Program-made: the position numbers and the translations under genes | Assembly (NCBI GenBank): GCA_033762915.1 | Contig: JANRLD010000025.1 | Coordinates: forward strand, 12,488-76,487 | DNA length: 64,000 nt | Source of the DNA: Meiothermus sp. | GTDB taxonomy: Bacteria; Deinococcota; Deinococci; Deinococcales; Thermaceae | Reading direction: 5' to 3' | The notes under the pieces: generated by a model | Told to the model about the DNA's origin: nothing | Seen by the model: only the letters and a program-made list of their open reading frames with translations | Database searches by the model: none | In this document: piece by piece, positions 26,780 to 53,523 of the stretch | How positions within the stretch are numbered: position 1 is the stretch's first letter | Layout: every line of letters begins with the position of its first letter

Positions 26780-27292
26780 ATGAAGTGGAGACAGCTTTGG
26801 ATCATTGGTCTCAGCCTGGTGCTGGCCCTGGCATTTGCGCAGACCAGGGGGGCAGTGAAGCTCGACCTTCAGGCCTACCGGGTGCTGAGCGTGCAGGAAA
26901 ACGGCAGGTCCGTTGAGAAGCTGGAGGAGGCCCTCGAGGTACGCCCCGGCCAACTCATCGAGTACCGCCTGGCCGCCCAGAACACCAGCCAGACCGCCCT
27001 GCGCCAGGTCAGCCTGGTCATCCCGATTCCCCGCACCACCGCCTACCAGGCCCTGAGTGCGGCTCCCCTGCGGCTTGGCCAGAGCCTGGTCGCGCCTCAG
27101 TTTAGTTTTGACGGTGGAAGCGTCTACGGCTTCCCGCCGCTAAAGCGCAAAGTAACTGTGATGGAAAACGGCAAGGAGGTTCAGCGCGAGGTTGAGGTGA
27201 AGCCCGAAGAGTACACCCATGTTCGCTGGGTTCTGCCGCAGATGGCCACCCAGGAAAACGTCGTCTTGACGCTGCGGGCCACGGTTCGCTAA
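26780..27292 (+). CDS. Small secreted single DUF11-like domain protein (putative chaperone)
   Basis: Signal peptide; VRPGQLIEYRLAAQN...YTHVRW...LTLRATVR*; GAGGAGG RBS. Confidence 0.8.
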   Translation: MKWRQLWIIGLSLVLALAFAQTRGAVKLDLQAYRVLSVQENGRSVEKLEEALEVRPGQLIEYRLAAQNTSQTALRQVSLVIPIPRTTAYQALSAAPLRLGQSLVAPQFSFDGGSVYGFPPLKRKVTVMENGKEVQREVEVKPEEYTHVRWVLPQMATQENVVLTLRATVR

Positions 27293-27343
27293 ACGAACCG
27301 CATTAGGCCCTAAGCCAACGCTGTCATTGGAGGAAATTCAACC

Positions 27344-30115
27344 ATGAAAAGAACCCTAAGTCTGTTGGTCGGCGCGGTGGCGCTTCTGGGCGTAGCCTTC
27401 GCCCAGCAAACCCCCGCCGGAACCAACATCTCCAACCAGGCCTCGGCCACCTATATCGACTCGGCCGGTCAGAACCAGAGCACCACTTCCAACCAAGTGT
27501 TGACCGTGGTGCAGCAGGTTTACAGCTTCACCATCACCCCCAACTCGGCCAGCACCAGCGAGCCCACCGGCGCCGCCGGCTTCGCCCAGAGCCGCAGCGC
27601 CCTTCCCGGTGCGCGCGTCTACTTCCCCTACACGGTCAACAATACAGGCAACGGCCCTGATACCATCAACCTGACCAGTGTACTCGGTACCGCCGGCGGC
27701 ACCACCCCCGTTCGCTTCGTGCTCCAGACCCCCACCATCTACCGCGACACCAACTGTAACGGCTCGGTGGACGCCGGTGAGTCGGTGATCTCCTCGGTGG
27801 CCCTCACCCAAAACGTCGGGGCACTGGCCGCAACCTCCTTGGCCTGCGTGATCATCGAGACCACCATCCCCAGCAGCGCCAATAACAACGAGGTCGGCAA
27901 CATCAACCTCTCGGGGATCTCGGCCGGCAACAACTCGGTGACCGACACCAACAACTGGTCGCGGGCCATCGCCACCACCTCCGCCGCGCTGGACATCAAC
28001 AAGAGCGCCAGCCCCAGCAACACGGCTTCGGCGGGCGGCACCATCTCCTACACCATCACCGGCCAGAATCGCGGCGGCAGCGCGGCCTCCGGCCTGACCA
28101 CCATCCCCACCGGCCTGGGCAGCATCCCGGTTGCCAGCAGCACCGGCATCCTGATCTGGGACATCGTGCCCACTGGCCTGACCCTGACCGGCGCCCCCAG
28201 CGGCTCCTCGGGCGCGGGCACCGTCAACATCGTCTACTCGAGCGACGGCACCACCTGGACCTCGACCGCCCCGACCTTCGCCACCTGGGCCGGCGACGGC
28301 ACCCGCCGCGTGGGCATGTGGATCACCGGCTCGGGCGCTTTCTTCCCCCAGGGGGCCTCGTACACCTTTAGCTTCACCACCAACGTGCCCGCAGGCGCGG
28401 CCTCGGGTACCACGTACACCAACACTGCCAACCTGCAGTTCAACAACGGCGCCGACGTCGGTCCGGTCGCCTCGAACAGCACCTCCAACACCGTCGGCAC
28501 CACCTTCGGCGTGGCCCTTGGCCCCAACGGTACCGCCACCGCTGCGGGCAACGGCGCGGTCGGCTCGGCCGACTCCCAGACCATCGCCTCGGCTTTCAGT
28601 GGCCAGACGGTGACCTTCACCCAGACCCTGCAGAACACCGGCAATGCCTCTGACAGCTTCAACCTGTCCCTGGGCACCGGCGCGACCGCCCCCAACCTGG
28701 CCCCGCCCAGCGGCTGGTCCTGCCAGATCACCCAGATTGACGGCACCCCCATCAACACCGCCGTCGGGCCTTTTGCTGCCAACGCCACCTTCAACTTCCA
28801 GGTGCGCTGCGCCATCCCCGCCAGCTACACCACCGCCACCGCGGTTAGCTTGAACGTGATCGCCACTTCGGTCGGCAACTCTGGCACCAGCGACCCCACC
28901 GCCGACACGGTCAGCGCGGTCAGCCTGGGCTACGCAGTCGACCTCGCCACCCGCGGCAACACCTCCAGGCCCGAGACCGCGGCCAACGACAACCCCGCCG
29001 GCCAGACCACCAACCCCGCAACCACCGTCAGCTTCCCGCTGGACGTGCGCAACAACGGCGAGAACACTGACACCTACCAGCTCTCGGCCACCATCCCCTC
29101 TGGCTGGTCGGTGCAGTTCATCAACGATGCCAACAACAACGGCGTAGCCGACTCCGGCGAGGCCGTGGTCAACAACACCGGCCTGATGGCCAAGGACGCT
29201 GTCCGTAGCGTGATCGCGGTGGTCACGGTGCCGGCCGGCACCAGCCCCGGCAGCAACAGCCTGACCTTTACCACCACCAGCGCCACCCTGGGCACGGTGA
29301 GCAACGCCGTCTCTACCACCATCACCGTCAACGAGGTCCGGGCCTTCGTATTCGACCCCGACCGCAGCGGTACCGTGACCAGCCCCGGCACCATCGTCTA
29401 CACCCATAACCTGCGCAACAACGGCAACGCCAGCGCAACCGTGGCGATCCCCGCGCCCACCTTCCTCAACACCTCCCGCGGCTGGACCTACCAGTACTCC
29501 ACCGACGGCGGCACCACCTGGACCAGCACCGTCTCGGGCTTGGTCCTGGCCGCCAACGCCTCGGCCACCCTGCAGGTGCGGGTGATCGTGCCCGCCGGCG
29601 AGGCCATCGGGGTGAGCGAGACCGCCCAGATCACCGCCACCGCCACCTACGCCAGCAGTGCCACCGCAGCCCAGACCGTCAACGACACCACCACCATCGT
29701 GGCCGGCGACCTGACCCTGGCCAAGACCGGCATCAGCTACGTGGGCAGCTCCGCCACCGTGCGCTCCGCCACCGCCGCCACCGCACTGCCCGGCGACCAG
29801 ATCCTCTACACGGTGGTCGCGACCAACAACGGCGTGGGCAATCTGACCACCGTCAAGATCGCCGACCCGCTGCCCAGCTTCACCGACTTCGTCTCGGTTA
29901 GCGCCACTACCACCATCTCGGGCGGTACCGTGGTCTACTCCACCGACGGCAACAACTGGACCACCACTGCCCCGACTACCCTCTCGGCAGGTCAGTCCAT
30001 CTACGTAGCCGTCAACACCGCCGGCACCGCTGGCGGCGCGGGCAGCATCGACGCCAGCGACCTGATGGCTCCTGGCCGCACCATCACCATCACCTTCCGA
30101 GTGCAAGTCCGCTAA
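27344..30115 (+). CDS. Secreted multi-Ig/DUF11 protein (putative major fibre subunit)
   Basis: Signal peptide; Thr/Ser/Asn-rich tandem beta-sandwich repeats (N.GN..D motifs); GGAGG RBS; followed by hairpins. Confidence 0.85.
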   Translation: MKRTLSLLVGAVALLGVAFAQQTPAGTNISNQASATYIDSAGQNQSTTSNQVLTVVQQVYSFTITPNSASTSEPTGAAGFAQSRSALPGARVYFPYTVNNTGNGPDTINLTSVLGTAGGTTPVRFVLQTPTIYRDTNCNGSVDAGESVISSVALTQNVGALAATSLACVIIETTIPSSANNNEVGNINLSGISAGNNSVTDTNNWSRAIATTSAALDINKSASPSNTASAGGTISYTITGQNRGGSAASGLTTIPTGLGSIPVASSTGILIWDIVPTGLTLTGAPSGSSGAGTVNIVYSSDGTTWTSTAPTFATWAGDGTRRVGMWITGSGAFFPQGASYTFSFTTNVPAGAASGTTYTNTANLQFNNGADVGPVASNSTSNTVGTTFGVALGPNGTATAAGNGAVGSADSQTIASAFSGQTVTFTQTLQNTGNASDSFNLSLGTGATAPNLAPPSGWSCQITQIDGTPINTAVGPFAANATFNFQVRCAIPASYTTATAVSLNVIATSVGNSGTSDPTADTVSAVSLGYAVDLATRGNTSRPETAANDNPAGQTTNPATTVSFPLDVRNNGENTDTYQLSATIPSGWSVQFINDANNNGVADSGEAVVNNTGLMAKDAVRSVIAVVTVPAGTSPGSNSLTFTTTSATLGTVSNAVSTTITVNEVRAFVFDPDRSGTVTSPGTIVYTHNLRNNGNASATVAIPAPTFLNTSRGWTYQYSTDGGTTWTSTVSGLVLAANASATLQVRVIVPAGEAIGVSETAQITATATYASSATAAQTVNDTTTIVAGDLTLAKTGISYVGSSATVRSATAATALPGDQILYTVVATNNGVGNLTTVKIADPLPSFTDFVSVSATTTISGGTVVYSTDGNNWTTTAPTTLSAGQSIYVAVNTAGTAGGAGSIDASDLMAPGRTITITFRVQVR

Positions 30116-30124
30116 GCCCCATTT

Positions 30125-30263
30125 GTCCCCCTGGGCCTGTGCCCAGGGGGACCCAAAAGTTCAACTGAGTTAGCTTGACTTCAGGATTCAACAGTTCAGC
30201 CACCCCTCGAGCCGAACTCAGTTAGTGGGACCCCCACCTAACCGCGTCGGCTCGAGTTTTTTT
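30125..30263 (+). terminator. Stabilising hairpin plus intrinsic terminator after the putative major subunit
   Basis: GTCCCCCTGGGC-CTGT-GCCCAGGGGGAC (30125-30152); CTCGAGCCGA...TCGGCTCGAG followed by T7 (30206-30263). Confidence 0.7.
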
Positions 30264-30277
30264 ACCCTGAGAAGGAG

Positions 30278-33022
30278 GTGAGCGTTTTGACACCCGACAA
30301 CCCCAATGCGCCCACTTCCCTCGGGGCCCGCGCACAACATCGGACTTTCCTTTTCCCGCTGGCCCTTTTGCTGAGCTTCCTGGCCTGTTTTTGGCCCTCG
30401 GCCCTAGCCCAGAGCGCCCTGGCCGGCACCATCATCTCCAACCAGGCCCAAGTCTCCTTCGCCGAGTCTACCCAGCCCTACTTCTCCAACGTGGTGGAGA
30501 CCCTGGTTCAGGCGGTCTGCGCGCCGACCATCACCCCCAACGGAACCCAGGGCAGCCCGGCCCAGCGGGCGGTGGTTTCGGCGGGCGGTTTCGCCTACTT
30601 CCCCTACCTGCTGCGCAATGCCGGCAACCAGCGCAGCACTTTCGCGCTGAGCTCGGCCCAGAACGCCGCCACCTGGGCCCCCCGTTGGGTCCGGTTGTAC
30701 CTAGATCAAAACGAAGACTCGAGGCTCGACCCGGGGGAGCCCCAGGTCGCGAGCCTGTCCCTTGATGTGGGGGAGCAGCGCCGGCTGGTGATGGAGGTTG
30801 CCCTACCCGCCAACGCCACCGGCGACCTGCTGGTCACCCCCACTGCCAGCTGCGTGACCGGCGAGCGCGACGACGACAACTTCAGCCAGATCAGCGTGGG
30901 AACCGGGCCCTCGCTCAACCTCACCAAGTCCACCAGCCGGACCACCCTCGACACCAACCAGGAAACCACCTTCGGGCTCCTGGTGGCCAACCTGGGCAGC
31001 ACGCGGACGGGCGGGCCGGTCTCCGTCACCGACTGGCTCAACACCCCCGAACTGGCCGGGCTAAGCATTGTGCCCGGCTCGGCCGAGGCCACCAAGGGAC
31101 GCCTGGAGTACAGCGCCGACGGGACCACCTGGAGTAGCCTCGAAGGCACCCAGGTCCTCGGGGTGCGCCTGGTGCTCGATGGCCTGGAGGCCGGCGAGCA
31201 GGCAGTCTTCAGCTTCCGCATGCGCCTGGGCGAGGGTAGCTCGAACGGCCTCCGGCGTAACCTGGCCACCGCCGAGGGTCCGGGCGGGCCAGCGGTGGCC
31301 GCCGTCGAGCTGACGGTGGCCCCACGCTTCGCCCACCGGTTGGGGCCGCTGGGCCGGCCCGAGGCCAGCGGTGCCCAGGACCGCCAGAGCGGAACCGCCC
31401 GTGTCGGGCAGAGCTACTGCTTCTCACACAGCCTGATTAACCTGGGCAACGCCCCCGACCGCTACACCCTCGAGCTCGGCGTGCTGCCCCCAGGGATAAC
31501 CGCCAGCTTCCGCCAGGGCAGCGGCCCGCTGGCCCAACCGATCCTGCTGGGCCAGGGCGAACGCAGTGACTTCCAACTCTGCCTAGGCGGCCTCGATCAG
31601 CAGACTCCCAGCTTCGAGGTCACCCTCAACGCGGTCTCCCAGACCACCGGGGCGGTCGACCCCACCTACGACATACTGGGTGTCACCTACGACCCGGCCA
31701 GCGTGCGGCTGCTCAAGAGCACCGACCGGGCCTCGGCGATGCCGGGAGAGTCGGTCAACTACACCCTGCAAATCAGCAACCCCTTCCCGGTCGCGATGAC
31801 CAACCTGCGTGTCAGGGACCAGCTCGACGAGAGGCTGGAGTTCGTCGAAGCCTCTTCAGGCGGCAGCTTCGAACCGGCCAGCCGCGAGGTGGTCTGGACG
31901 GTGGGCAGCCTGGGGGTCGGCCAGACCCTCACCCTGAGCCTGCGGGTGCGGGTGGCCTCCACCACGAACGACGGCCAGATCCCCAACCGCTTCAGTCTCC
32001 GGGCCGATCAGTTCGACGACACCGCCACCTCCAACACGGTCAGTCTGCCTATCCTCACCAGCAGCATCCAGCTGCTCAAGAGGGTAACCCCTGCTCAGGC
32101 AGTGGTGGGCGACACCCTCACCTTCACGCTGACCCTACAGAACACCGGCAAGACCGACCTGGTCATCGAGGTGGTTGACACCCCCGGCAAAGGCCTGCGC
32201 TACGTGGAGCAGAGCGCCCAGCCCGCCGCCTCAGCCCAGCGCGGAGAGGGCCTGGTGTGGTCGGGCCTCGAGCTACCCGCCGGGGCCACCCGCAGCCTGA
32301 GCTACAAGATGCGGGTGTTGGCAGGGGCCCCGGAGCTGCTGGAGAACCGCGCGGTGGCCACTGGGGTCAACACCCAGGGGGTGGCGGTGGCGGCGGCCTC
32401 GGCGGCGGCCTCGGTCAAGCTGGACCGGGCGGTGTTCACGCCCATCAACATTCTGAGCGGCAGGGTCTTCCTCGATTCCGACCGCGATGGGCGCTATACG
32501 GCTGGTCTGGACATCCCGCTACCAGGAGCCAGGCTGGTGCTGTCCAACGGGATGCAAACCCTCAGCGACAAGGACGGGCGCTACGCCTTTCGGGAGCTGC
32601 GGGGCGGGGCCTGGGAGATCTTCCTCGACCCGGCCTCAGCCCCCTTCAAGCCGCTCCCGCACCCCGAGCAGTTAGGTGAAGGCTACCGCCACAGGGTCAC
32701 GGTCAACGGCCTGACCAACTCCGACTTCCCCCTCGAGCGCCCCCTGGGCCAGGCGGTGGTGCAGCGCGAGACCACCCTCGAGTTCGGCCCGCTTAAGGTC
32801 TACAAGCGCCTGATCGCCCTGCCGGCCGGGTTGCGGGTGGTCTTGGAGGTCAACAGCAGCGAGCCCATGAACGACCTCACCGTCTCCGACCCGGTGCCCG
32901 GCGGTGGGCTTCGGGAGTTCAAATTTGACAAGCTGGAAGGCCCACAGACCGTAACCTACGACTTGCCCATAACGCCCGGGTTCTACCTAACCGACCCGCA
33001 GGCCAGGTGGCGATACCCATGA
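30278..33022 (+). CDS. Secreted DUF11 + SdrD-B-like protein (putative base/adaptor subunit)
   Basis: N-terminal half paralogous to 27344..30115; DUF11 repeats; LSGRVFLDSDRDG...LPGARL..SDKDGRYAF (SdrD-B-like). Confidence 0.8.
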   Translation: MSVLTPDNPNAPTSLGARAQHRTFLFPLALLLSFLACFWPSALAQSALAGTIISNQAQVSFAESTQPYFSNVVETLVQAVCAPTITPNGTQGSPAQRAVVSAGGFAYFPYLLRNAGNQRSTFALSSAQNAATWAPRWVRLYLDQNEDSRLDPGEPQVASLSLDVGEQRRLVMEVALPANATGDLLVTPTASCVTGERDDDNFSQISVGTGPSLNLTKSTSRTTLDTNQETTFGLLVANLGSTRTGGPVSVTDWLNTPELAGLSIVPGSAEATKGRLEYSADGTTWSSLEGTQVLGVRLVLDGLEAGEQAVFSFRMRLGEGSSNGLRRNLATAEGPGGPAVAAVELTVAPRFAHRLGPLGRPEASGAQDRQSGTARVGQSYCFSHSLINLGNAPDRYTLELGVLPPGITASFRQGSGPLAQPILLGQGERSDFQLCLGGLDQQTPSFEVTLNAVSQTTGAVDPTYDILGVTYDPASVRLLKSTDRASAMPGESVNYTLQISNPFPVAMTNLRVRDQLDERLEFVEASSGGSFEPASREVVWTVGSLGVGQTLTLSLRVRVASTTNDGQIPNRFSLRADQFDDTATSNTVSLPILTSSIQLLKRVTPAQAVVGDTLTFTLTLQNTGKTDLVIEVVDTPGKGLRYVEQSAQPAASAQRGEGLVWSGLELPAGATRSLSYKMRVLAGAPELLENRAVATGVNTQGVAVAAASAAASVKLDRAVFTPINILSGRVFLDSDRDGRYTAGLDIPLPGARLVLSNGMQTLSDKDGRYAFRELRGGAWEIFLDPASAPFKPLPHPEQLGEGYRHRVTVNGLTNSDFPLERPLGQAVVQRETTLEFGPLKVYKRLIALPAGLRVVLEVNSSEPMNDLTVSDPVPGGGLREFKFDKLEGPQTVTYDLPITPGFYLTDPQARWRYP

Positions 33023-36000
33023 AACCAGGAACAGGGAACAGGGAACAGGGAACAGGGAGGAGAAGCTCTCGCGGTCTCTCTCTCCTGGTTCCTCTCCTTT
33101 CTTTCCTCGCCCTCCTGATGTTCGGCAGCGCGCTCGCGCAAGTCCGTACCGAACTCAAGGGGATCGTGCCCGGCAGTGAGCTGCGCTGGGAGATCACCGA
33201 ACTGCGGGCCAGCATCGTGGTCACCAAGCCGACCATTCTGAACCTGCAGATCTACTCCCCGGGCTTCGACCCCAAGGACTACCGCAGCGCCTTACAGGGC
33301 AAAAGCGAACTGGGCGATGAGCGCTACGATAAGGGCAAGGGGCCGATGCGCGCCAGCTTCGCCCTCAGCCGCGACGGGCGGGTGCTCGAGAACCGGGGCT
33401 ACGGGGTGGAGCCGCACCGCTGGGTGCTGTTCTTCCGGGGACGGGTGGAACCGGGGGTGTACACGATTGCCAGCAGCCTCAAGGGGCTGGGCAAGAACGC
33501 CTTCCTCTACCGCATCCAGACCAGCGTCCCCGAATCCGCCGAGCTGCTTGTGGATCCCACCCTTCAGCTCTACGACGTGCGCCGGAGCAGCGCGGTCTCG
33601 ATCGGCACCATCCGTGGGCCGAACTGGGTGGAGCCCTTCACCCTCGAGGTGCTGCCGGGGGTGGGGCCGTTTAGGGTGGGCATCTACGACGAGGACGGCC
33701 CAAGCGAGATGCTGGGGCGGGTGCGGCTGCCCGGCCAGCAGGTGGTGCCGCGCCAGGTTGCCGGCGACCGACAGTGGAGCTACTTCAATGTAGCGACGCC
33801 CGGCATCTACCGCTTCGGCTTCGCGCAGGCCCCCACCTCCAGGCAGTACTCCAACACCATCGGGTTCCAGGTGAATGCCTGCATGCAGGTGCGCGGCGAC
33901 CGCTTCGCGGTGCTTCCACCCAAGCCGGTTACGGCCAGTGTGGTGAACCAAGCGGGGCAGCGGCTCGAGTTCGCCCCCACGATCACCGGCGAGCAGATCC
34001 GCGAGGTCACGCTGCCCCCGCTGCCCGACGGCTACACCCTGCTGCGCATCGAGACCGAGGGCGGCGAGCCGCTGGCGGCCAACAAAGCCCGGCTGGGCTG
34101 CGCGGGCGGAAGCGTGCGCTTCGTGGTCGCGCTGCCCAAGGTGGCCGAGACGCCGGTCTCGCCGGAGCCCAGAGAGCCCGCCCTCACCGACCCCACGCCC
34201 GAGCCCGGCCAGCCCGAGATGGTGGCCCCCCCGGCCCCGGAGCCCATCGCGGTGGCTCCGCTCGAGCCGCTGGCTCCGCAGCCTGAGCCACAACCACAAC
34301 CCCAGCCTGAGCCACAACCACAACCCCAGCCTGAGCCACAACCACAACCCCAGCCTGAGCCACAACCACAACCCCAACCACAACCCCAGCCCCAGCCTGA
34401 ACCCCAGCCCCAGCCCGAGCCGCAACCACAACCCCAACCGCAACCCCAGGTCGAGGTGGTCGCCCCCCCGGTCAAGAAAGGTCGCCTCGAGCTGACGGCC
34501 CGCCTGGTGCTTCCCACGGGTGAGCAGAGCGCCGAGATTGGGGTGCAGGTGGGCGACCAGACCGTCCGGCTCGAGGGCGGGGCGGCCTCGCTCGAGCTGA
34601 CCCCCGGCAGCCTGACCCTGACTCCCCAAGTGCAGGGCGCGACAGTGGTCGGCCCCAGCACCGCCGAGGTGCTGGCAGACCAGACCGCCAGGGCCGAGTT
34701 TAGGGTCTACCCCAGCGTCCAGCTGACCCTGCACGCCGACAAAACCGTGCTGAAGATCGGCGAAGAGGCGGTACTGACCGCAACCGCCACAACCGCCTAC
34801 GCTCGCCTGCTGCCCGCCAACCTCCAACTTGCCCTGCCTGCCTGCCTGGAGCCGCTCGAGACCCCCCGCCTAACCACCCCGATCTCCGCCGCCCGGCAGG
34901 GGGTGCTGCGTGTCCCGGTCCGTGCGGTCTGCCGGGGTGAGTTTCCTGTCCCGGCGACACTAACCCCCTGGGGCCAAGGGGCCAGTGTGAGCCTTAAGGT
35001 GCTGCAGCCACTGAGGTTTAGCCTGACCAAACAGGCCCTGACCCCCGCAGTCGCGGTAGGGGGCCAGGCAGTCTACCGGCTGACGGTCCAGAACATCAGC
35101 GACGAGGCCGGGCCGGTGACCCTGCGCGACCCCCTGGCCGTGGGCCTGCTGGGTGAGCCTCTCGAGCAAAGCCTGGTCCTCGAGCCGGGCCAGGAGCGCA
35201 GCATCGAGCTCAGCGCCCTGGTCGGCCCCGAGGCCCCGGCCCGCATCCAAAACCGGGCCCAGTTGGTGAACGCTGCCGGCGAGGTGCTGGCTGAGTCTGA
35301 GGCCGGGGTCGAGGTGCTGCGACCGGCGGCCGTGCTGGGCCGCACACTGGACAAGCGCGTGGTGGTCCCCGGCGAGACGGTGGAGGTCGGGCTGACCGTG
35401 GGCAACGACGGGCAGGCCAACCTCGAGTACAGCCTGAGCGACACCATACCCGAGTGGCTCGAAGTCTCGAACCCCCCCAGCTTCAGCGGGCAGCTGGCCC
35501 CGGGCCAGCGCGTGACCCACCGCTACACTGCCACGGTGCGCTTCGGCTCGGGGGCCGAGGGACAGTTTGAGGCCCAACTGCGCTCCAACGGCGGCGACCC
35601 CACCGCCACCGACACCCTGCGGCGGGTGCTGGTACCCCTAAGCAAGCGGGCCACGCCCGAGCGGGTGGTGTTGGGGAACGACGCGGCCTTTGAAATCGAG
35701 TTCACCAACCCCACCGACCACCCTTTGAGCCTGGAGTTGATGGAAGCACCCGACCCCGATCTGGGGATGGATATCCCTGGGGAACTTCGGTACGAGCTGG
35801 CCCCCGGAGAGACACAGCGCTTGACCCTTCCGGCTAAGCCCAAGCGGGTGGGGCCCCTGGAGAACCAGGTCACGGCCTTCGTGGGCGGCGCCCCGGCCTC
35901 CTTTCCCACCAAGGCCACCCTCATGGTAATGCCGGTACTGGAGGTGCAGCGCTACTCCCTGGTAACCCTCGAGTTCAGCGCACAGGGGCAGGGCGAGCGA

Positions 36001-38925: not shown

Positions 38926-38970
38926 ACCCCAAGCACTCCCATTGCCTCGCGAATTCAACCGCAGAAACCT

Positions 38971-41841: not shown

Positions 41842-42062
41842 CCCACGCCCTCTCGAGGCCCAACCCCATGGCCTGAAGCGCGTTATCTGGCTTTGTGATC
41901 AACCTACTATTGAGCGGTCCAAATAACCACGACCAAGCCCGTCTAGCACGTAAATTTAGTGTGGATGTCGACGATTTCGACCACACGTACGGCTCTTTCA
42001 GCTTCAACATTACCTCAAGTGCCGTCTGGTAGCCGGCTCGAGCCCGGAGGAGCGCCGCCACG

Positions 42063-45000: not shown

Positions 45001-46025
45001 AGGACGGCGGCGAACCCGGCATCGGCGGGGTGACCGTCTCGGCGGTGGGGGCCACCACCCGCACCGCCAGCACCGACGCCAGCGGCGGTTTTAGCCTGCT
45101 GATCCCCAGCGGCTTTGGCAATTTCACCCTCTCCCAGCCCCAGGGTCCTGCCACCGGCTCTAACGTCGGCGGCACCGCGGTTCAGCTGGCCGCCGGCTAC
45201 AACAGCGCGGTGGCCCGTCAGCGAGCCGTAACCGCCCTACCCAACGGCTCGAGCAACTCGGGCTACAACTTCGGGGTGGTATGGGCCTCGGAGCTCCGCC
45301 CCGACCAGAGCGGCCAGGCCACCAGCCCCGGTGTCGCCGCCTATCGCCACACCTTCCGCCCCGGCACGCTCGGCAGTGCAAGCCTGACCGTCAGCGGCGC
45401 CTTCACTTACCAGATCCGCCGCGCCGCTGGATGCACCGCCCTGGCACCCTCCGACGCCCTGCGGCCCGTGCCCCTCTCCCTGGTCGTCGACTCCACCTGG
45501 CCCCGCGACCCCGACGGCCGCCTCAGCGCCTGCGAGCTCGAGCTGCTGGTCCTGGTCCCCGCCGGCCGGCCCGGCGGCTCCGTCGACATCGCCCAGCTTT
45601 CGGCGTCCCTAACCTGGGCCGGCAACGCAAGCGTGACCGACCAGCGCACCGCGACCGACACCACCACCGTCGCCGCGACGGGCGCTCTGCGCTTGAGCAA
45701 GGTGGTGCGCAACGTCACCCAGAACATTCCCGCTGCTGGCGCATATGCCACCAACGTCGCTGGCCGCCCCGGCGACACCCTCGAGTACTGCATCGCCTTC
45801 CGCAACTCCGGCGCCGCTGCCGTCAGCAGCGCCGTCCTCACTGACCCCATCCCCTTCTTCACCAACTACGCCCCGGGCACCCTCCGCCTCGACTCCGCAC
45901 CGCTCACCGATACCGCCGACGCCGACACCGGCGAGCTGGTGGGCACCCTCTACGTTCTGGTTCGCCTCGGCACCCTGACCGCAGGCCAGACCGGACAGGT
46001 CTGCTACCGCGTCACCATCCGCTGA
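42063..46025 (+). CDS. Adhesin-like protein: jelly-roll head + SdrD-B + DUF11 repeats + shared C-terminal module
   Basis: Signal peptide; PGGGGNDLAIDNLQF; SGRVYLDQNAN; several K..YT...N..D.LP repeats; GGAGG RBS. Confidence 0.8.
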   Translation: MMPKTAGGWPGLAVGLVLIALTGLSGPASAQATNFCANAGGTRSANLFALDGTFGTAPAGTQAPTLTSSTNPTPTVTPLRYAMSTVPGVTGGLDAQGRPIGTTTYALNNRSTVNFPGNYSPEDGEYEITNSSYSRQDGAWHRFIGGRNTGNERDLFMFINAAVAAGVFYEQTLTVTPNTNFEFSISIINLIANNSSIVPNVNLEIDRLGVDDNNNGTVDESGEAQTIVLTGNIPNSNTPIWRDYGGVINSGASNRITVRFRNNAPGGGGNDLAIDNLQFTSCTGLSTGNISGRVYLDQNANNTSDAGEPGYGPNVAVSLIGKDQNLNDFIVATAQTAADGSYSFVNVPAGTYTVAVPQNEPQLNQANPRNPSTTAVINSVTYVTRPSTVVGLGTSLTNQNFGFGPAPISLQKTANANSSTDAIGSVITAAAVGNTFQYTLRVTNNTGTNLSSTSLRLMDALPAGLTYVTGSLQMALVTTGSPTFSSVNDGGSYPFTEPSGRLLGRNVGTSTSSFNNGNLNSGETLIVRFRVTVASGPPPQISNQGRITYTISSVSRNVLSDDPNVAGFADPAVVVVGANLTVSKVADLASVSPGSTLRYTITLVNNGALPTTALTLQDPLPAGLTYVPNSAEAAIGSTPASFTPLNASSYPFATARTMGNNVSSGGFNNNTLAVGETLTVRFRVTVADTATGLGQATSLSNQASTVFNYTGGSPTTVPSDDPAFGGPSDPTITPVQYPDLTIQKTAAATFWQGNNSSYTLTVSNTAGSPASLGTVSVTDVLDASLNYVSAGGSGWSCAYTAATRTVACTRSDALSGGSAYPGITLTVVPTAAGPVPNTAGVANGADNNSANNTSTLSLSVQATYTLSGNVFADANANGLREGGEAGLAGVTVALGGAAARTALTDSSGNYAFTFLIPGSYTLTQTDLPGYISITPNLLGVSLGNADLGNQNFADFLGYRLSGTVFRDDGRGGGTANNALQDGGEPGIGGVTVSAVGATTRTASTDASGGFSLLIPSGFGNFTLSQPQGPATGSNVGGTAVQLAAGYNSAVARQRAVTALPNGSSNSGYNFGVVWASELRPDQSGQATSPGVAAYRHTFRPGTLGSASLTVSGAFTYQIRRAAGCTALAPSDALRPVPLSLVVDSTWPRDPDGRLSACELELLVLVPAGRPGGSVDIAQLSASLTWAGNASVTDQRTATDTTTVAATGALRLSKVVRNVTQNIPAAGAYATNVAGRPGDTLEYCIAFRNSGAAAVSSAVLTDPIPFFTNYAPGTLRLDSAPLTDTADADTGELVGTLYVLVRLGTLTAGQTGQVCYRVTIR

Positions 46026-46039
46026 GTTGCGCGACAGTG

Positions 46040-46106
46040 ACAGCGGTTCCCACCATTACCCCGCACATCCGAGTCTCTGCGTGCGGGGTATTCGTGGGAC
46101 CGCTGT
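46040..46106. repeat. REP/MITE-like element copy 3
   Basis: ACAGCGGTTCCCAC...GTGGGACCGCTGT; nearly the reverse complement of copy 4. Confidence 0.75.
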
Positions 46107-46294
46107 GAGTTTGCGAAACCCTCCACGCGACCTCGGCAGCGAGCAGCCTGCAGGCGCAATTCTCTATAGGCTACCGGCCGAGATTTCGCATCTCGACCAT
46201 GGAGACACTTATACACCCTCGAGCAAGACTCACAGCCCGAGACACCGGCGTTAAGGATCGGAATCCCAGCAAGCCACAAATAACCAATAATTGA

Positions 46295-46359
46295 AATGTA
46301 TCCCAGTTACATTAGGCTCAATGTTTTACTTTGTAGATCAGTCACATTTTAGCTACCAT
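46295..46359 (+). promoter_or_regulatory. Putative separate promoter/operator for the last adhesin gene
   Basis: AT-rich island; two TGTA-NNN-CAGT-Y-ACATT boxes (46297, 46332); TTGTAG-N17-TACCAT. Confidence 0.45.
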
Positions 46360-46490
46360 AATACTTTGGAAACGGATTCCGTAGGCCCAAGGCTCAAGTC
46401 CAATTCGCCGGCCCGTGCTGAGGGTCGCAGAGCGCACGCACCAGCCCGGTTAGAACGGAGCCTCCGGCGCGCCAAACGGGTAGGGCATCC

Positions 46491-49400
46491 GTGATACCAA
46501 GCGACTTCTTGAAGAAGCTAGGGGTCGCCCTGTGTACCTTACTGTGTGCCCTGCTGGGCTCGGAGGCCCTCGCACTCAGCCCGGGCAGCATCACGGCCGT
46601 CATGACCACCGACAACCTGCTCACCTCGGACTCCAACAACTGTTCCGGAGGGGCTGGGCCTCGAGCGGCCTACGTGGGCTTCCGCTTCACTAACACCTCC
46701 GGCTCCGCCCTGCGCGACGTCCGGGTCACGCTGGGCGCGTTCGCCGCCGGCTTCGGACTCAACAACGGGCAGGCCGCCACCCTGACCATCGGTAGCCTGG
46801 CGGCCGGGGCCAGCGACGTGCTGTACTGGCACATCTTCTACCCGTGCCACACCGCCTCCCCCAACAGCAACACCCTAACCCTGACCCTCAGCGACTCCAA
46901 CCCCGGAACCGTGACCATCAACACCGGCACCACCATAACCTCGACCAGTAGCCTCAGCGCCAACGCTGGCGGCCAGATCAACACCACCACCCTGGGGCCG
47001 GGAGCAGTGTTGGGCCAGGTCATCACCTACGATGTCACCTATAACTTCGGCCAAACCTCCGTCGGCGACCGCTTCAATCTCCAACCCGCAGGGAACACGT
47101 CTTACAACGCGGGCTGCTTTCAGTTGGTCAACTCGAGGATCACCTCCTCCAACGTGCCCGCCATCACGACAGGCACAGCCGATCAACTGCTATTCGTGGC
47201 AGGCGCGGGGCAGAACACCGGCGGCGGGCAGACCAACCTGGTTACCGTGCGCTACTTCATCAAGTACCTCTGCGCCAACACTTCCACCACCTCCGCACCC
47301 TACGCGTCGCAGACCAGCGGCGGCCAGCTCAAGTACAGCGGCAACTTCGGCGGCGCCGCAACCCTGATGAACTTCCCCGGAGCGACCAACTCGGTGAGCA
47401 TCTCCAAGAGCGCCGACTTCTCGGTGGTCCCCGCCGGCGCCGCCGTCACCTACACCGTCACCCTCACCAACTCCTCGGCCAGCTTCCCAACCTACGTCGA
47501 CCAGATCACCGATGTTTTGCCCAGCGGGGCCACCTTCGGCAGCATCCAGAGCAGCAGCGACGTGACCGCCGCCAACTCCAATCAAGTCCCGCAGACTGGG
47601 AGCAGCGGCACCCTGAGCTTCATCGGCCAGCCCTTCACCGTCAGCGCGGGTGGCACAGTGAGCGGGTCGTACCTGATCCCGCCAACCAGCTCGATCCGGC
47701 TGATCTACACCGTCAACCTCTCCACCACTCCCGGCACTTACGCCAACTCCGCCACCGCCACCATAGGCACCGTCACCACGCCGCCCGCCAGCATCAGCGT
47801 TCAGGTGGTGACGATGGCCCTGACATTGACCAAGACCGCAGTGACCCGGGCCTACATTGGCGACACGGTCACCTACACCTACACCCTCACCAACACCACC
47901 ACCAGCGGCGCCCCCAACCTCACCCTGTCTTCCATCACCGACCCACTGCTGGGCACCCTGAGCCCGCCCGCCAGTTGCACCACCCTGGCCCCCGGCGCCT
48001 CCTGCAGCTTCACCCAGACCTACCCGGTGACCTCTTCCACCCCCGACCCCTTCACCACCACGGCCACCGCCACCTACACCTTCACCCCCACCGGCACCCC
48101 CAGCAGCGCCAGCGCCAGCGCCACCCACGTCCTCGACGTGCTAAAGCCCGACCTCACCATCTCCAACGTGGCTAGCGGCTCCTTCGCCCGGGGCTCCACC
48201 GGCACCTACACCCTCACCGCCACCAACCTCTCGGCCGACCCCACCACCGGCACGGTCACGGTGAGCGGCACCCTGCCCGCCGGCCTCACCCCCACCTCGG
48301 CCACCGGCACTGGCTGGAGTTGCACCATCTCCGGCCAGACCGTGACCTGCACCCGCTCCGACGCCCTATCCGGCGCGGCCTATCCGCCCATCACCGTGAA
48401 CGTGAACGTAGCCCAGTCGGCGGCCACACCGCTCTCCTTCACCGCCACGGTCTCCGGTGGGGCTGACACCAACAGCACCAACAACAGCGCCACGGTGAAC
48501 AGCACCATCTCCACCGTGGCCGACCTGTCCGTGACCAAGACCGACGGAGTGAGCGTGGTGGCGGCGGGCAGCACGGTCAGCTACACCATCACAGCAGCCA
48601 ACAACGGCCCTTCCAACCTCATTGGGGCGACCCTCACTGACACCCTGCCCGCCAGCCTGACCGGGGCCACCTGGACCTGCGCGGCCTCGAGCGGCTCCTC
48701 CTGCCCCGCCTCTGGGTCGGGCAACATCGTCGCCAGCCTCAGCCTACTCTCTGGCGGCACCGCCACCTTCACCCTCAACGCCACCCTCTCGGCCTCGGCC
48801 ACCGGCAGCGTGGCTAACACCGCCACCGTGGCCGTACCCGGCGGGGCCACCGACCCCAACTCCTCTAACAACTCCTCCACCGACACCAACTCCATCGTCC
48901 CCGCGGTGGACCTGGCCATCACCAAGACCGCGGGCGCTTCCACGGCCGTCCCCGGCTCCACCCTGACCTACACCCTGGTGGCCCGCAATAACGGCCCCAA
49001 CCCGGTCACCGGGGCCACCCTCACCGACACCCTGCCGTCCGGTGTCACCGGCGGGAGCTGGACCTGCGCGGCCTCGAGCGGCTCCTCCTGCCCCGCCTCC
49101 GGGTCGGGCAACATCGCCGCCAACGTCAGCCTGCTCTCCGGCGGCACCGCAACCTTCAGCCTGGTGGTCACTGTCTCGCCCGCCGCCACCGGCACCCTCA
49201 GCAACACCGCCGGCATCAGCGCCCCCCTCACGGTCGCCGACACCAACCTCTCCAACAACTCCTCCACCGTCACCACCACCCTCACCCCCAGCGTCAACCT
49301 GAGCCTCAGCAAAACCGACGGCAAGACCACCACCCTGCGCGGCGACCTCAACACCTACACCATCACCGTGAGCAACAGCGGCCCCTCCAACCTGGTCGGG

Positions 49401-52400
49401 GCCACCGTCACAGACGCCCTGCCGTCCGGCCTGACCGGCGGGAGCTGGACCTGCACCGCCCCCAGCGGCGGCTCTTGCACCGCCTCGGGGAGCGGCAACA
49501 TCTCCGACACGGTGAACATCCCGGCCGGCGGCAGCCTCACCTACAGCCTGAGCGCGACCGTGGGCGCGGGCGCGAGCGGCACCCTGAGCAACACCGTAAG
49601 CGTGTCGGTGCCCTTGAGCACCACCAATACCGGTGCCTCGAGCGCCACCGACACCACCAGCGTCCTGACCTACACCGTGACCAAGGCGGTCAGCTCGACC
49701 ACCCCGGTCCTGCCGGGCACCACCCTCACCTACACCATTCAGATCACCAACACCAGCCTGGTCGCGATCAGCGGGGCCGCCTTTACCGACGCCCTGCCCG
49801 CCGGGACGGCCTACTACCCCCTCAGCGCCAGCCTCAACGGCGGCAGCGCCTTCGGGACCACCTACCCCTTCGCCAGCGCCTACCCGGTCAACAGCGCGGG
49901 CCAGAGCAGCGGCGTCATCGCGGCGGGCGCCACCACGACGATCAGCTTCAAGGTGGTGGTGAACAGCAGCAGCCCGCCGGCCTCGGTCTCCAACCAGGGC
50001 TATTTCACCTTCACCGGCGGGCCCTCCGGCGGTGCCCCCACCGACGACCCCACCACCCCCGCCGCCAACGACCCCACCCTGAGCACCGTGACGGCCCCCC
50101 CGGGCTACTTCATCAACTATGAGGACGGCACGGTCGGAAGCTACAACTGCACCACCAACGTCGGCATGGACGTGGGGGGCTTGACCAGCACCGGGGCCGC
50201 CTTCGGGCGCTCCCAGGCCAACCCGCCGCTCAACGGGCTGTACCACTTGGTCAGCGACGACCTGAGCAGCGCCTCGCTCAACGCCTACACCGAGACCCCC
50301 TGGCTCCTGTTCGGCGGGGGCAACCTGATCGAGTTCAGGCACAAGATCAGCAACCTCTCCACCACAAACGCCCGGATAGTGATTTCCCTAGTCGAGGCGG
50401 GCACCGGCCTCGAGACGGTCCTGCTGACCTACACCTACGTCGCCGGGGACGCCAACGTCTCGAGGTTCGTCTCGCAGAACACCAGCGTGACCGGGGTCTA
50501 CAAGGTCCGCATCCGCTTCCTGGGGACCCCAGGCTCGGGCAGCGCCAGGGGCGCGGTGGACGACATCAACACCGACGCCACCCAGGCCACCGCCGGCGTG
50601 GGAACCGCCGCCTCGCCCGCCTCCGGCTCGGCCTGTAACTACCGCCTCGACCCCCGGGTTGTGAAGACCGGCCCCGCCACCGCCACCACCACCCAGACCG
50701 TCACCTACACCATCACCGCCACCAACGGCGGCCCCGCCACCTTCCAGGGAACCCTCACCGACGCCGTCCCCGCCGGCTTCACGGCCGTAACCTGGGTCTG
50801 CACCGCCGCCGGAGACGCCGACTGCGACACCGCCGCCGCTGGGACCGGGGCCTCCGGCTCGGGCAACAGCATCAGCCTGACGGCGGTACGCATCCGGCCG
50901 GGGTCGGGCAACTCGGTCACCCTCACCGTGACCGCCACCGCCGCCACCGCCGGGACCGTCGTCAATACCGCCCTTCTGACTCTGCCGGGCGGGGCCACCG
51001 ACGACCTCAACCCCGCCGACAACACCTCCTCGGTCACCACGGTCATCTCCCTGCTGGGGGTGACGGTCTCGGGACGGGTCTACGCGGACCTCCAACCCAA
51101 CGGCACGCTCGACGGCGGCGAGGACTGGAGCAGCGGGGTCGCAGTGCGGGTCAACCTGGTCCAAGGCACGACCGTGGTGCAGAGTGTCGCGGTGGGGGCA
51201 GGGGGCGGCAACTTCTCCTTCAGCGCGGTGGTGGCAGGATCCTACCAGCTCATCGTCACCACGGGCGCGGGCGCCACAACTGCCGCCGCGCCCGCCGGCT
51301 GGATCTTCATCCAACCCCAGTCCGGCAGCCTGAGCCTGAGCGTGGCCACGGCCGACCTGAGCGGCCAGAACCTGGGGCTCTACAACGGCTCGAGGCTCAC
51401 CGGCACCGTCTTCCGCGACGACGCCCTGGGCGGGGGTACGGCTAACAACTCGCTGCAAGACGGGGGCGAGGTGGGAATGGGGGGCGTCACGGTCACCGCC
51501 AGCGACGGCACCAGCAGCCTGAGCACCCTCACTGAAGCCGGCGGGAGCTACACCCTCTACATTCCGGCCACCTACGGCTCGAGCCTGACCCTCTCCCATG
51601 CCCAGGCCGCGCCCACCGGCACCAACGTCGCGGGCGCCGCGATACAGCTAGCCTCGAGCTATAACGCGGCGGCGGCACGGCGCCGGGTCATCAGCAGCTT
51701 CTCCGGCGGCCAGACTTACACCGGCTACAACTTCGGGGTGGTCTGGGCCTCGGAGCTGCGCCCCAACAACAGCGGCCAAGCCTCCAGCCCTGGCGTCGCC
51801 ACCTACCGCCACACCTTCCGCCCCGGCACCCTGGGCAGCACGATCTTGAGTATGACCGGGGGGCTCGCCTACCAGGTGCGCTGGGCCGCCGGCTGCAGCG
51901 CGGTCACGGCCTCCGACCCCCTGCAGCCCTTCCCCCTCTCCCTAATCGTCGACTCCACCTGGCCCCGAGACCCCGACGGCCGCCTCAGCGCCTGCGAGCT
52001 CGAGTTGCTGGTCCTGGTTCCCGCCGGCCGACCCTCCGGCTCCGTCGACATCGCCCAGCTCTCCGCCGCCCTGGCCTGGGCCAACAACCCCGCCTTGACC
52101 GACCCCCGCTCGGCCATCGACACCACCACGGTGCTGGCCCCCGGCGGCCTGAGGCTCGAAAAGCAGGTGCGCAACGTCACCCAGAACAACCCCGCCGGCG
52201 CCTACGCCACCAACATCGGCGGACGGCCCGGCGACACCCTCGAGTACTGCATCGCCTTCCGTAACTCCGGCACCACCGCCGTCAGCAGCGCCGTCCTCAC
52301 CGACCCCATCCCCTTCTTCACCAACTACGCCCCGGGCACCCTCCGCCTCGACTCCGCACCGCTTACCGACGCCGCCGACGCCGACACCGGCGAGCTGGTG

Positions 52401-52484
52401 GGCACCCTCTACGTTCTGGTTCGCCTCGGCACCCTGACCGCAGGCCAGACCGGACAGGTCTGCTACCGCGTCACCATCCGCTAA
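46491..52484 (+). CDS. Giant adhesin-like protein (1997 aa): many DUF11 repeats + SdrD-B + shared C-terminal module
   Basis: Signal peptide; repeated DL..TKT..YTI...NNGP..TDTLP...NTA..DP..NNS repeats; C-terminus paralogous to the two previous genes. Confidence 0.85.
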
Positions 52485-53467
52485 GCGGACGCCAGGGGCT
52501 CGAGGATCGCCCGCAGCTCCCCCAGGGTGTCTACCCGCTTAAGGGCGGGGTGCAGCTCGGGGTGCGCCGGAAAGTACCTGTACACCACCTTGCGGAGCTG
52601 GCGAACGCCGCTGCGCTCGCCATACCACTGCGCGTTCAGCTCGGCGTGACGCAATGCAGTCCGGGCGCGCTCCTGCGCGTCAGGCCCTGAGAACGCCTGC
52701 CGGGTGGGTTCGGGAACTCCGCCGGCAGGATTTTCCGCGATCTTCCGGAAGAGCCAGGGGTTCCCCACCGCCCCCCGCCCGATCATCACCCCCGCCACAC
52801 CAGTCTTGAGGCGCTCCCGATACTGCTCGAGGCTCGCCACGTCCCCGCAACCCAGCACCGGCACCCGGACAGCCTCCGCCACCTTGGCGATGGCCTCCCA
52901 GTCTGCCTCGCCCGTGTAGCGCTGGGCGCTGGTGCGCCCGTGGACCGTGATCAGCGCGGCCCCCGCAGCCTCGAGCCCCTGGGCCACCTCGAGGCTGCGG
53001 TCGGTGTCCCAGCCCAGCCGGATTTTCGCGCTGACCTCCAGCTGCGTTCCCTGCCGCATGGCCCGCACCAAATCGAAAGCCCTTTCCGGCGTCTGCAGCA
53101 AGCAGGCCCCGCCGCGCCCGGCCATCTTAGGAGCCGGACAGCCCATATTGAGGTCAACCGCCACCGGCCCGAAATCCCGCTCAGCCTTGGCGGCCGCGTC
53201 GCTCAAAACCCCGGGGTCGTCGCCAAACAACTGCAGCACCAGCCTCTGCTCACCGGGGTAGGGCGCACCCAGCTCGGTAGACTTGCGCTCGCCCGCCAGG
53301 AAGCCTCGCGCCAGCACCATCTCCGAGACCGTCCAGGCCGCGCCCTGCTCGAGGGCCAGCTGCCGGAACGGCGCGTCGGTGTATCCCGCCATCGGGGCCA
53401 GCACTGCCCTCGGCTTCTCCAGCATCTCGGCGTAAAACTTAGGCTTGGTCAGCGGCGCAGCGGTCAC
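52481..53467 (-). CDS. tRNA-dihydrouridine synthase (Dus family)
   Basis: [30 protein letters not shown] and VMIGRGA.GNPWLF motifs. Confidence 0.93.
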
Positions 53468-53523
53468 AGCCCATGGTAGCAGAGGACATGGAACAGTGTT
53501 AGCTTGTGGGGATTGAGGCCCAC

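Follow-up and report, generated by a model that had tools for sequence, protein, structure and literature searches.

The stretch of DNA considered here, a window of 64,000 nucleotides from contig JANRLD010000025.1 of a Meiothermus sp. assembly (GCA_033762915.1), contains a cluster of seven genes for exported proteins, designated P0001 to P0007, which we propose to code for a surface fibre that is modular, assembles itself and uses a single split DUF11 (CLIPPER) domain throughout; we put the probability of this reading at roughly 0.6. The acceptors, located at the C-termini of P0002 and the three proposed tip proteins P0005, P0006 and P0007, hold the first seven or so strands of the domain with the isopeptide lysine and the catalytic aspartate, and the donors, the first approximately 35 mature residues of P0002 and P0003, hold the last two strands with a conserved asparagine. 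This division of the Lys/Asp/Asn triad between two chains is the main mechanistic point and did not form part of the preliminary description of the region, which had recognized the donor/acceptor logic of the protein termini.

As stated in that description, the seven open reading frames (ORFs) are co-oriented, on the plus strand between 26.7 and 52.5 kb of the window, and each of them opens with an ordinary signal peptide. Pfam and NCBIfam recognize DUF11/TIGR01451 repeats in most of the seven proteins, with DUF11 scores of 32.9 (P0002), 122 (P0003), 94.9 (P0006) and 266 bits (P0007) at a cut-off of 24.6, and TIGR01451 scores, at a cut-off of 24, of 26.5 for P0005 (above) and 17.2 for P0001 (below). 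The names given in the databases are limited to 'hypothetical', 'DUF11 domain-containing' or 'beta strand repeat-containing'.

To assess the extent of the domains, a hidden Markov model (HMM) with 140 positions was derived from nine internal repeats, all complete, that occur in the proteins of the window. Twelve of the 13 internal repeats found in the window at an independent E-value (i-E) below 0.01 extend to HMM positions 133–140, the remaining one being a partial match (3–74). The C-terminal domains of P0002, P0005, P0006 and P0007, on the other hand, stop at position 102, which coincides with the last or next-to-last residue of the protein: the P0002 acceptor covers positions 7–102 and ends at residue 922 of 923, P0005 covers 16–102 (residue 955 of 956), P0006 15–102 (1319 of 1320) and P0007 16–102 (1996 of 1997). 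The DUF11 match in the P0002 acceptor, residues 808–891, corresponds to profile positions 7–81 of 114. With P0001, which matches weakly, five proteins thus end at position 102. The five C-termini that had been described as cut at one point indeed read ATVR, VQVR, VTVR, VTIR and VTIR directly before the stop, and the last two strands are missing from the C-terminal domains as claimed. The complementary claim, that these strands are found at the mature N-termini of P0002 and P0003, is also borne out, as AGTNISNQA...SNQV and AGTIISNQA...SNVV directly follow the respective signal peptides and map to the adjoining positions of the profile, the donor of P0002 representing the missing part, positions 103–137. 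In two internal repeats of P0006, ...TVRFRVTVA is followed, after a short linker, by SLSNQASTVFNY; judged by sequence, these repeats combine, within a single chain, the end of an acceptor with the start of a donor.

The same distribution is observed in the homologues. Among the fetched P0002-like proteins, 22 of 23 good C-terminal matches end at HMM positions 100–103 with at most three residues over, as do 10 of 18 good matches of tip C-termini. P0002-like N-termini map to HMM positions 103/104–132/137 in 18 of 24 cases at i-E ≤ 0.1, and those of P0003 hit the same positions weakly (13/25 at i-E ≤ 10); the N-termini of P0001 (0/19), P0004 (0/27) and the tips (0/22), which served as controls, do not match. 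A strict donor pattern is present in 37/38 P0002-like and 44/50 P0003-like proteins (46/50 with a loose pattern), compared to 1/34 P0001-like proteins, 0/49 tips and 0/51 P0004-like proteins, and proteins that escape the pattern either have a variant motif, for instance VIRNQATA, or come from ORFs called too long. Conversely, a phi-x-phi-x-phi-x end is found in 25/28 P0001-like proteins, 42/47 P0002-like proteins and 46/49 tips and in none of 57 P0003-like proteins. Chance does not account for this pattern, and we consider the split of the domain confirmed because the HMM ends, the donor mapping, the controls and the joined internal repeats agree.

Whether the two halves fit together was addressed for one pair, P0002 residues 780–923 with P0002 residues 21–62, modelled each with an alignment. 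The complex reaches ipSAE scores of 0.88, 0.87 and 0.87, the best control 0.02, at a mark that is passed by 116 of 157 solved complexes and by 2 of 215 mismatched pairs; the pLDDT of the partner is 87 and at least 98% of the contacts are common between runs. In the model, donor residues 29–40 and 47–59 touch the acceptor, the former pairing along strand 834–841, which contains Asp841, and the latter lying against the first strand 788–796, which contains Lys794. Strand complementation in trans, which the preliminary description had suggested to be checked by structure prediction, thereby receives support (0.87 for the P0002 pair versus 0.02 for the control) and is regarded as very likely.

DUF11 has been renamed CLIPPER in a publication of 2025, in which it is described as an autocatalytic Lys-Asn isopeptide domain, with a bond between Lys715 and Asn806 catalysed by Asp748 in PDB 9IFR and with the general rule that in CnaA-like folds the bond links the first and penultimate strands (PMC12617251). 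The triad was assigned here through these residue numbers and the strand rule rather than by alignment to 9IFR; neither P0007 nor a single internal repeat gave useful matches when searched against PDB sequences, and 9IFR was not retrieved by phmmer. The acceptor half holds the lysine (LTLAK, LRLEK) and the aspartate (IADPLP, LTDPIP), and the donor half the conserved asparagine of the penultimate-strand motif (ISNQA). Counted on distinct sequences ending in the acceptor pattern, the lysine is present in 49/51 P0002-like proteins and 56/61 tips (five alignment gaps) and the aspartate in 47/51 P0002-like proteins (the other four having Glu) and 61/61 tips, and on the donor side Asn31 and Asn50 are both invariant in 23/23 P0002-like proteins. 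By homology, the reactive asparagine would be Asn31, with Asn50 as an alternative. Complete internal repeats keep the whole triad with a Lys-to-Asn distance of +93, versus +91 in 9IFR. In P0001-like proteins, the lysine column is Leu in 44/45 and the aspartate column L, I, V or G in 45/45 sequences, and in a separate count 19/19 are without the aspartate. As DUF11 is an isopeptide domain and the triad is split across two halves, covalent locking is suggested; the simplest reading of the sequences would be that the subunit junctions are meant to lock covalently and that P0001 binds donors without locking, and we regard the covalent lock as probable.

Taken together as a mechanism, the proteins would be exported by the Sec pathway, upon which a tip protein, consisting of head domains and an acceptor, would take the N-terminal hairpin of a P0002, the only protein of the cluster with both a donor and an acceptor end, the C-terminal acceptor of which would take the next P0002, and so on repeatedly. 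P0003, with a donor and no acceptor, would close the chain and tie the fibre to P0004 as the anchor and perhaps the pore. Each junction would restore a complete CnaA-like domain and would probably lock itself through an autocatalytic Lys-Asn isopeptide bond involving Lys794 and Asp841 of one subunit and Asn31 of the next, so that sortase, usher and ATP would all be unneeded for assembly. P0001, an acceptor look-alike without the lysine and aspartate, would probably act in the periplasm as a cap or chaperone to which the donor hairpins bind reversibly. The donor/acceptor bookkeeping set out in the preliminary description, one both-ended, one donor-only, three acceptor-only, one lone small acceptor and one barrel protein, stands and is conserved phylum-wide; since the tips are acceptor-only, P0002 is both and P0003 is donor-only, the polarity would mirror that of chaperone-usher pili, with the tip first, growth at the base and a donating terminator. 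That the product is a true polymer anchored at P0004 appears reasonably likely. More tentatively, with the odds slightly on the negative side, the cluster might represent a new self-ligating class of diderm pili, with a natural SpyTag/SpyCatcher-like split of a CnaA domain, docking by a two-strand N-terminal hairpin at a barrel of about 30 strands, irreversible bond chemistry that, in place of ATP, a sortase or a chaperone-usher cycle, drives tip-first assembly in the periplasm and a catalytically dead 'catcher', P0001, that hands over the hairpins.

Other explanations share part of this evidence. The fibre could be strand-complemented in the same way and non-covalent, as chaperone-usher and type V pili are, the Lys, Asp and Asn being structural relics of DUF11. 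Some DUF11 domains are without isopeptide bonds according to the CLIPPER paper (PMC12617251), the complex model is silent on the chemistry, and a report on Clostridium perfringens BsaA describes an N35A polymer that without the bond stays stable until boiled (bioRxiv 10.1101/2024.11.04.621531). Despite the split, almost every acceptor and donor nevertheless retains its share of the triad, which is lost precisely in P0001 (Leu in 44/45 and L/I/V/G in 45/45), the family that would need release, which is unexpected of relics and makes this explanation unlikely in our view. Alternatively, one tip, one P0002 and one P0003 could form a single stalk on P0004, a one-to-one modular adhesin with a split that serves head exchange; three alternative tips on a common C-terminal module of 337 aa would fit such an arrangement, as would the fact that P0002 is already a multi-domain rod of about 900 aa. 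P0002 has, however, a donor as well as an acceptor, the model supports its self-pairing, and the hairpin after 23/24 P0002-like genes suggests an excess over the downstream genes, and we hold the single stalk to be distinctly unlikely.

Two further readings do without a fibre made by complementation in trans. The truncated C-terminal domain might be a sorting signal read by P0004, comparable to the C-terminal domain of the type IX secretion system (T9SS), and the N-terminal motif an unrelated tag for export or quality control. The acceptor proteins do all terminate at the same point of the fold, where a phi-x-phi-x-phi-x pattern is conserved, and the barrel gene always adjoins acceptor genes, but donors and acceptors are adjacent, non-overlapping parts of one profile that are joined in the internal repeats, the modelled pair scores 0.87 versus 0.02 for controls, and the P0001 acceptor comprises only about 150 mature residues, with no cargo beyond itself; a sorting signal is therefore rated as very unlikely. 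Even less credit is given to a closure of P0002 in cis, by which its own N-terminal hairpin would fill its own C-terminal domain to give a looped monomer: both halves are found on one P0002 chain, but about 720 residues of Ig-like domains lie between its ends, and acceptor-only tips, donor-only P0003 and donor-bearing barrel proteins all require pairing in trans.

Several points weigh against the self-locking fibre favoured here. Its support is wholly computational, consisting of sequences and models, and the complex model may just rebuild a familiar fold from two pieces and so reflect complementarity, not binding in the cell; the low-error contacts listed for Lys794 are with residues 33, 49 and 52 of the donor and do not expressly include Asn31. 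With Asn50 equally invariant, the reactive asparagine is assigned by homology alone, and the triad counts leave out proteins without the phi-x-phi-x-phi-x end (3/28 P0001-like, 5/47 P0002-like and 3/49 tips). Of the well-matched tip C-termini, those that do not align to the very end, 8 of 18, are partial local alignments, and the P0003 donors fit the profile weakly, none of 25 at i-E ≤ 0.1. P0002 might occur once per fibre and not as a polymer. P0001 is an acceptor and not a strand donor like PapD, which would make it unlike any known pilus chaperone, and the model does not explain how open acceptor grooves are shielded before assembly. Foldseek and VIA-align return for the modelled P0004 barrel generic, tied matches (LptD, FimD/PapC, TamA, PelB and porins; TM 0.2–0.33, Z about 12), so that the predicted barrel resembles no specific transporter family, and the model leaves unexplained how strings of folded domains cross the outer membrane.

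The relation to known pilus systems was considered by family and motif searches. Usher (PF00577), PapD-like (PF00345) and Sortase (PF04203) have no match in the cluster or in the 95.5%-complete genome, the usher search having recovered its E. coli control, and no known pilin family is present among the seven proteins, in agreement with the preliminary description, which had recognized no PapC/PapD, sortase or type IV pilin motifs. The proteins, which end in VR or IR, have neither an LPXTG motif nor a C-terminal membrane helix, and no lipobox Cys, the signal peptides of P0001 to P0003 ending in AFA or ALA before Q. TasA/camelysin and FimA families are without a match among the Pfam hits of the seven proteins, and no SipW-type signal peptidase was seen among the neighbouring ORFs, which were named by eye from their translations with no family search.

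In the chaperone-usher pap and fim systems, the tip is acceptor-only, the rod subunit has a donor and an acceptor, the last subunit donates without accepting, the usher is an outer-membrane barrel, and a hairpin follows the gene for the major subunit. The cluster shares this bookkeeping, an outer-membrane barrel and a hairpin after the proposed major subunit gene. It differs in that the barrel has about 30 rather than 24 strands, that Usher and PapD are missing and that the accessory protein is an acceptor, not a donor; furthermore, the donor is a two-strand hairpin which would complete the CnaA-like C-terminal domain of a multi-domain subunit of about 900 aa, and a covalent lock is probable. 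With this two-strand hairpin and a non-pilin fold, the relation would be one of working alike and not of membership. Type V pilins are lipoprotein precursors that are proteolytically activated and carry a C-terminal donor strand. Type V pili (FimA/Mfa1 of Bacteroidota) resemble the proposed system in strand-exchange polymerization at the outer membrane and in an anchor subunit that ends the fibre; here, however, the donor is N-terminal, the signal peptides are ordinary and no FimA-family match is found. SpyTag/SpyCatcher is an engineered split of CnaB2, with the lysine and the catalytic acid on one piece and a short peptide as partner, which dock and ligate spontaneously; in contrast to this man-made pair, which is of the CnaB and not the CnaA type and forms a Lys-Asp bond with a one-strand tag, a natural split for polymerization would apply here.

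C. perfringens BsaA of the TasA family is reported to undergo donor-strand exchange followed by a lock (bioRxiv 10.1101/2024.11.04.621531), and in BsaA as in the Sulfolobus threads (PMC9715654) an N-terminal donor strand inserts and an autocatalytic intermolecular isopeptide bond then forms without sortase. These fibres differ from the proposed one in their fold (TasA/camelysin-like, or that of the thread subunit), in the Asn-Glu-Lys triad of BsaA, in single-domain subunits, in the monoderm or archaeal host, in having no outer-membrane barrel and in sharing no Pfam family with it. With CLIPPER/DUF11 (9IFR), the cluster has in common the family, by Pfam matches above cut-off, the Lys/Asp/Asn triad and the nature of exported, repeat-rich surface proteins, but the form described there is a complete domain in one chain, whereas here the terminal copy is split and the bond would be intermolecular. 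A complete CLIPPER domain of seven to nine strands in one polypeptide is found in the internal repeats and not in the terminal domains, which stop at position 102 of 140. Where PMC12617251 uses the word 'intermolecular', it is not about CLIPPER, and 'split' appears nowhere in the paper. By homology, then, the cluster would belong to the CLIPPER family alone, its termini falling short of single-chain completeness, and would not be homologous to any described pilus pathway. The literature survey that the preliminary description had recommended found no description of this system, with limited coverage of subscription journals. A paper that seemed to link DUF11 to donor strands was set aside, as it deals with DUF1102 in archaeal Tat-fimbriae, and in two Deinococcus papers DUF11 appears as bare table or list entries.

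The cluster is widespread in Deinococcota. Of 41 related genomes, 31 have a match to P0003, as do 21 of the 24 other genomes of the genus. Homologous regions, 24 in number, were fetched from 22 genomes, and 23 of them keep the order P0002-P0003-P0004, with P0001 first and a tip last where the contig permits. A search with a profile of the barrel yielded 79 loci, again with the same gene order, of which all taxon-named ones are Deinococcota (Meiothermus, Calidithermus, Thermus, Oceanithermus, Trueperaceae and many Deinococcus), so that the synteny across the phylum which the preliminary description had proposed to look for is present; the Thermus homologues include those of T. aquaticus and T. 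scotoductus. Variant loci are L018 (G027) and L072–L075. In one family, the P0003-like protein, of 1416 aa, lacks a donor where its start is called, and the barrel is encoded by two ORFs; in Trueperaceae a P0003-like gene coding for 2100–2400 aa precedes the barrel gene. The features of the cluster are compiled in Table 1.

Table 1. Genes, domains and elements of the Meiothermus sp. cluster with their positions in the window.
Feature	Position	Strand	Description
OmpR-type response regulator	25831–26514	+	immediately 5' of the cluster; translation read by eye
P0001, small exported lone acceptor	26780–27292	+	170 aa from ATG; truncated DUF11-like fold; ends in LRATVR before the stop
P0002, proposed major (shaft) subunit	27344–30115	+	923 aa; donor hairpin at the mature N-terminus, acceptor at the C-terminus
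P0002 donor hairpin	27413–27520	+	residues 24–59, PAGTNISNQASATY...TTSNQVLTVVQQV; HMM 85–134; invariant Asn31 and Asn50
P0002 acceptor	29696–30112	+	C-terminal CLIPPER/DUF11 without the last two strands; Lys794 and Asp841
12-bp G+C-rich hairpin	30125–30152	+	10 nt 3' of the P0002 stop; z = -4.6 for a 141-nt stretch
P0003, donor-only, proposed base/terminator	30278–33022	+	914 aa; donor hairpin, DUF11/DUF7507 repeats, CarboxypepD_reg/SdrD-B-like domain
P0003 donor hairpin	30422–30517	+	residues 49–80, AGTIISNQAQVSF...FSNVVETLVQAV; contains Asn55
P0004, outer-membrane protein	33007–38925	+	1972 aa; conserved N-terminal domain, Pro/Gln linker, Ig-like domains, C-terminal giant beta-barrel
P0004 beta-barrel	37483–38922	+	residues ~1493–1972; about 28–30 predicted strands
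P0005, tip 1	38971–41841	+	956 aa; choice-of-anchor L, GEVED, SdrD_B, common C-terminal module; acceptor at ~41497–41838
P0006, tip 2	42063–46025	+	1320 aa; head without family match, three complete DUF11 repeats, SdrD_B, common C-terminal module; acceptor at ~45681–46022
P0007, tip 3	46491–52484	+	1997 aa; head without family match, at least seven complete DUF11 repeats, common C-terminal module; acceptor at ~52143–52481

The ORF of P0001 opens at a GTG (26735), and the database form of the protein begins at the ATG given in the table. P0001 has weak DUF11/TIGR01451 matches, opens the cluster in 19 of the loci fetched and, without the isopeptide lysine and aspartate, is proposed from its sequence to be a non-covalent donor-strand cap or chaperone. 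The hairpin downstream of P0002 recurs in the homologous loci L013–L039 with 10–17 bp, kept in place and not in sequence and with no clear U-tract: 23/24 P0002-like genes have, after their stop codon, an unbroken stem of 9 bp or more, compared to 0/19, 4/25, 8/27 and 5/22 of the other genes. The hairpin is probably an attenuator or mRNA stabilizer, and its distribution suggests a major structural subunit that is made in excess and lends support to the shaft role that had been ascribed to P0002.

P0003 has a conserved C-terminal module that ends in TDPxxRWRYP, and short natural forms of 374–517 aa retain the donor and the C-terminal third alone. The P0003 and P0004 genes overlap, stop to start, and in most homologous loci of the same genus this overlap amounts to 4 nt. 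The last approximately 85 residues of P0003 contain three invariant features, a lysine, the aspartate of xxDPxP and a C-terminal tail TDP...WR(Y) (C-terminal 225 aa, window 32345–33019), and this end may, as judged from its sequence, be a self-capped or Lys-Asp cross-linked degenerate CLIPPER-like domain; a model of the last 225 residues (pLDDT 82.5) gives generic Ig-like and SdrD-B-like fold matches with a short strand of middling confidence at the tail.

P0004 is proposed to serve as the platform or anchor, possibly as the export pore. That one protein of the cluster ends in a beta-barrel, as had been predicted, is confirmed by a Porin_4 match and about 30 predicted strands; AlphaFold2 (AF2) models the C-terminal 640 aa (mean pLDDT 74.1) as an Ig-like domain followed by 30 strands from model residue 161 onwards. 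FimD and PapC appear only among the tied generic barrels, and no family is assignable. The barrel profile retrieves 1348 representative proteins at E ≤ 1e-3 and 661 at E ≤ 1e-10. Inspection by eye of 24 distant homologues shows a P0004-type N-terminal domain in 18 of them, and two begin with a donor motif. One such donor-motif homologue, P0319, aligns to P0003 (residues 33–1144, E 4e-27) and to P0004 (1101–1966, E 6e-15) and is, by its sequence, a natural fusion of base and barrel; such natural fusions and the 4-nt gene overlaps support the suggested role of P0003 as a base at an outer-membrane platform. A cluster look-up of ten distant barrel homologues provided a taxon for one, Deinococcus koreensis, and ESM Atlas look-ups with the N-terminal domain of P0004 and the head of P0007 gave no usable lead. 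Between the N-terminal domain and the Ig-like region of P0004, a tandem DNA repeat with periods of 6, 18, 24 and 60 (window 34279–34449) codes for a (PEPQPQ)n linker of about 60 residues, the length of which probably varies between strains.

The three tips share their C-terminal module of 337 aa at 69–75% identity, of which there is no further copy in the genome. The choice-of-anchor L family present in P0005 is named for its position ahead of varied surface-anchoring signals. Three tip genes follow each other here (38971–52484), and at most one was detected per locus in the fetched relatives; for the heads of P0006 and P0007, the counterparts are single tips in other species, with 62–66% identity. 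A long, nearly perfect hairpin (window 46040–46106; z = -4.0 for a 141-nt stretch) lies just 3' of the P0006 stop in the gap of 466 nt to P0007 and may be a terminator that makes P0007 a separate transcription unit; a promoter/terminator consensus scan of window 45900–53600 gave no meaningful signal. Within P0007, a 387-bp tandem repeat of 2.4 copies with 74% match (window 48581–49506) corresponds to consecutive complete DUF11 repeats and suggests a recent repeat expansion in the tip stalk.

With respect to the genomic surroundings, the OmpR-type response regulator upstream of P0001 is, from its sequence and position, a possible regulator of the operon; a homologue lies 48–494 nt 5' of the P0001-like gene in 9/19 loci including the window, all of the same genus. 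It is an orphan without an adjoining histidine kinase in the window. Directly 5' of it are two tandem glutamate dehydrogenase paralogues (23013–24287 and 24456–25733), and 3' of the cluster, on the opposite strand, lies a dihydrouridine-synthase-like gene, all named by eye from their translations. The GC skew is -0.08 to -0.28 over window 28000–54000 and near zero in the flanks, which is probably due to the Thr/Ala/Pro/Ser-rich coding strand of the cluster. Among sequencing runs, none of RNA is listed as containing the sequence, and DNA runs contain it in small shares only. The genome assembly has 5.4 Mb in 119 contigs with 95.5% completeness and 0.5% contamination; other members of the genus have 2.4–3.9 Mb.

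If the proposal is true, bacteria with an outer membrane would have a further way to build fibres, using components that have no homologues in the chaperone-usher, type IV, type V, curli or sortase pilus systems, and the split domain would be the first natural split CnaA/CLIPPER isopeptide domain that joins proteins, the same principle as in the engineers' SpyTag/SpyCatcher, reached independently. Bond formation as the driver would provide a testable answer to the question of ATP-free extracytoplasmic assembly, and thermophiles would be a source of heat-stable self-ligating tag/catcher pairs. With respect to the organism, the three exchangeable tips suggest a cassette system for changing the adhesion target. 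With respect to the phylum, a function would be assigned to the large conserved operons of 'DUF11 domain-containing' and 'hypothetical' proteins in Meiothermus, Thermus and Deinococcus and to the barrel family with its 1348 clusters.

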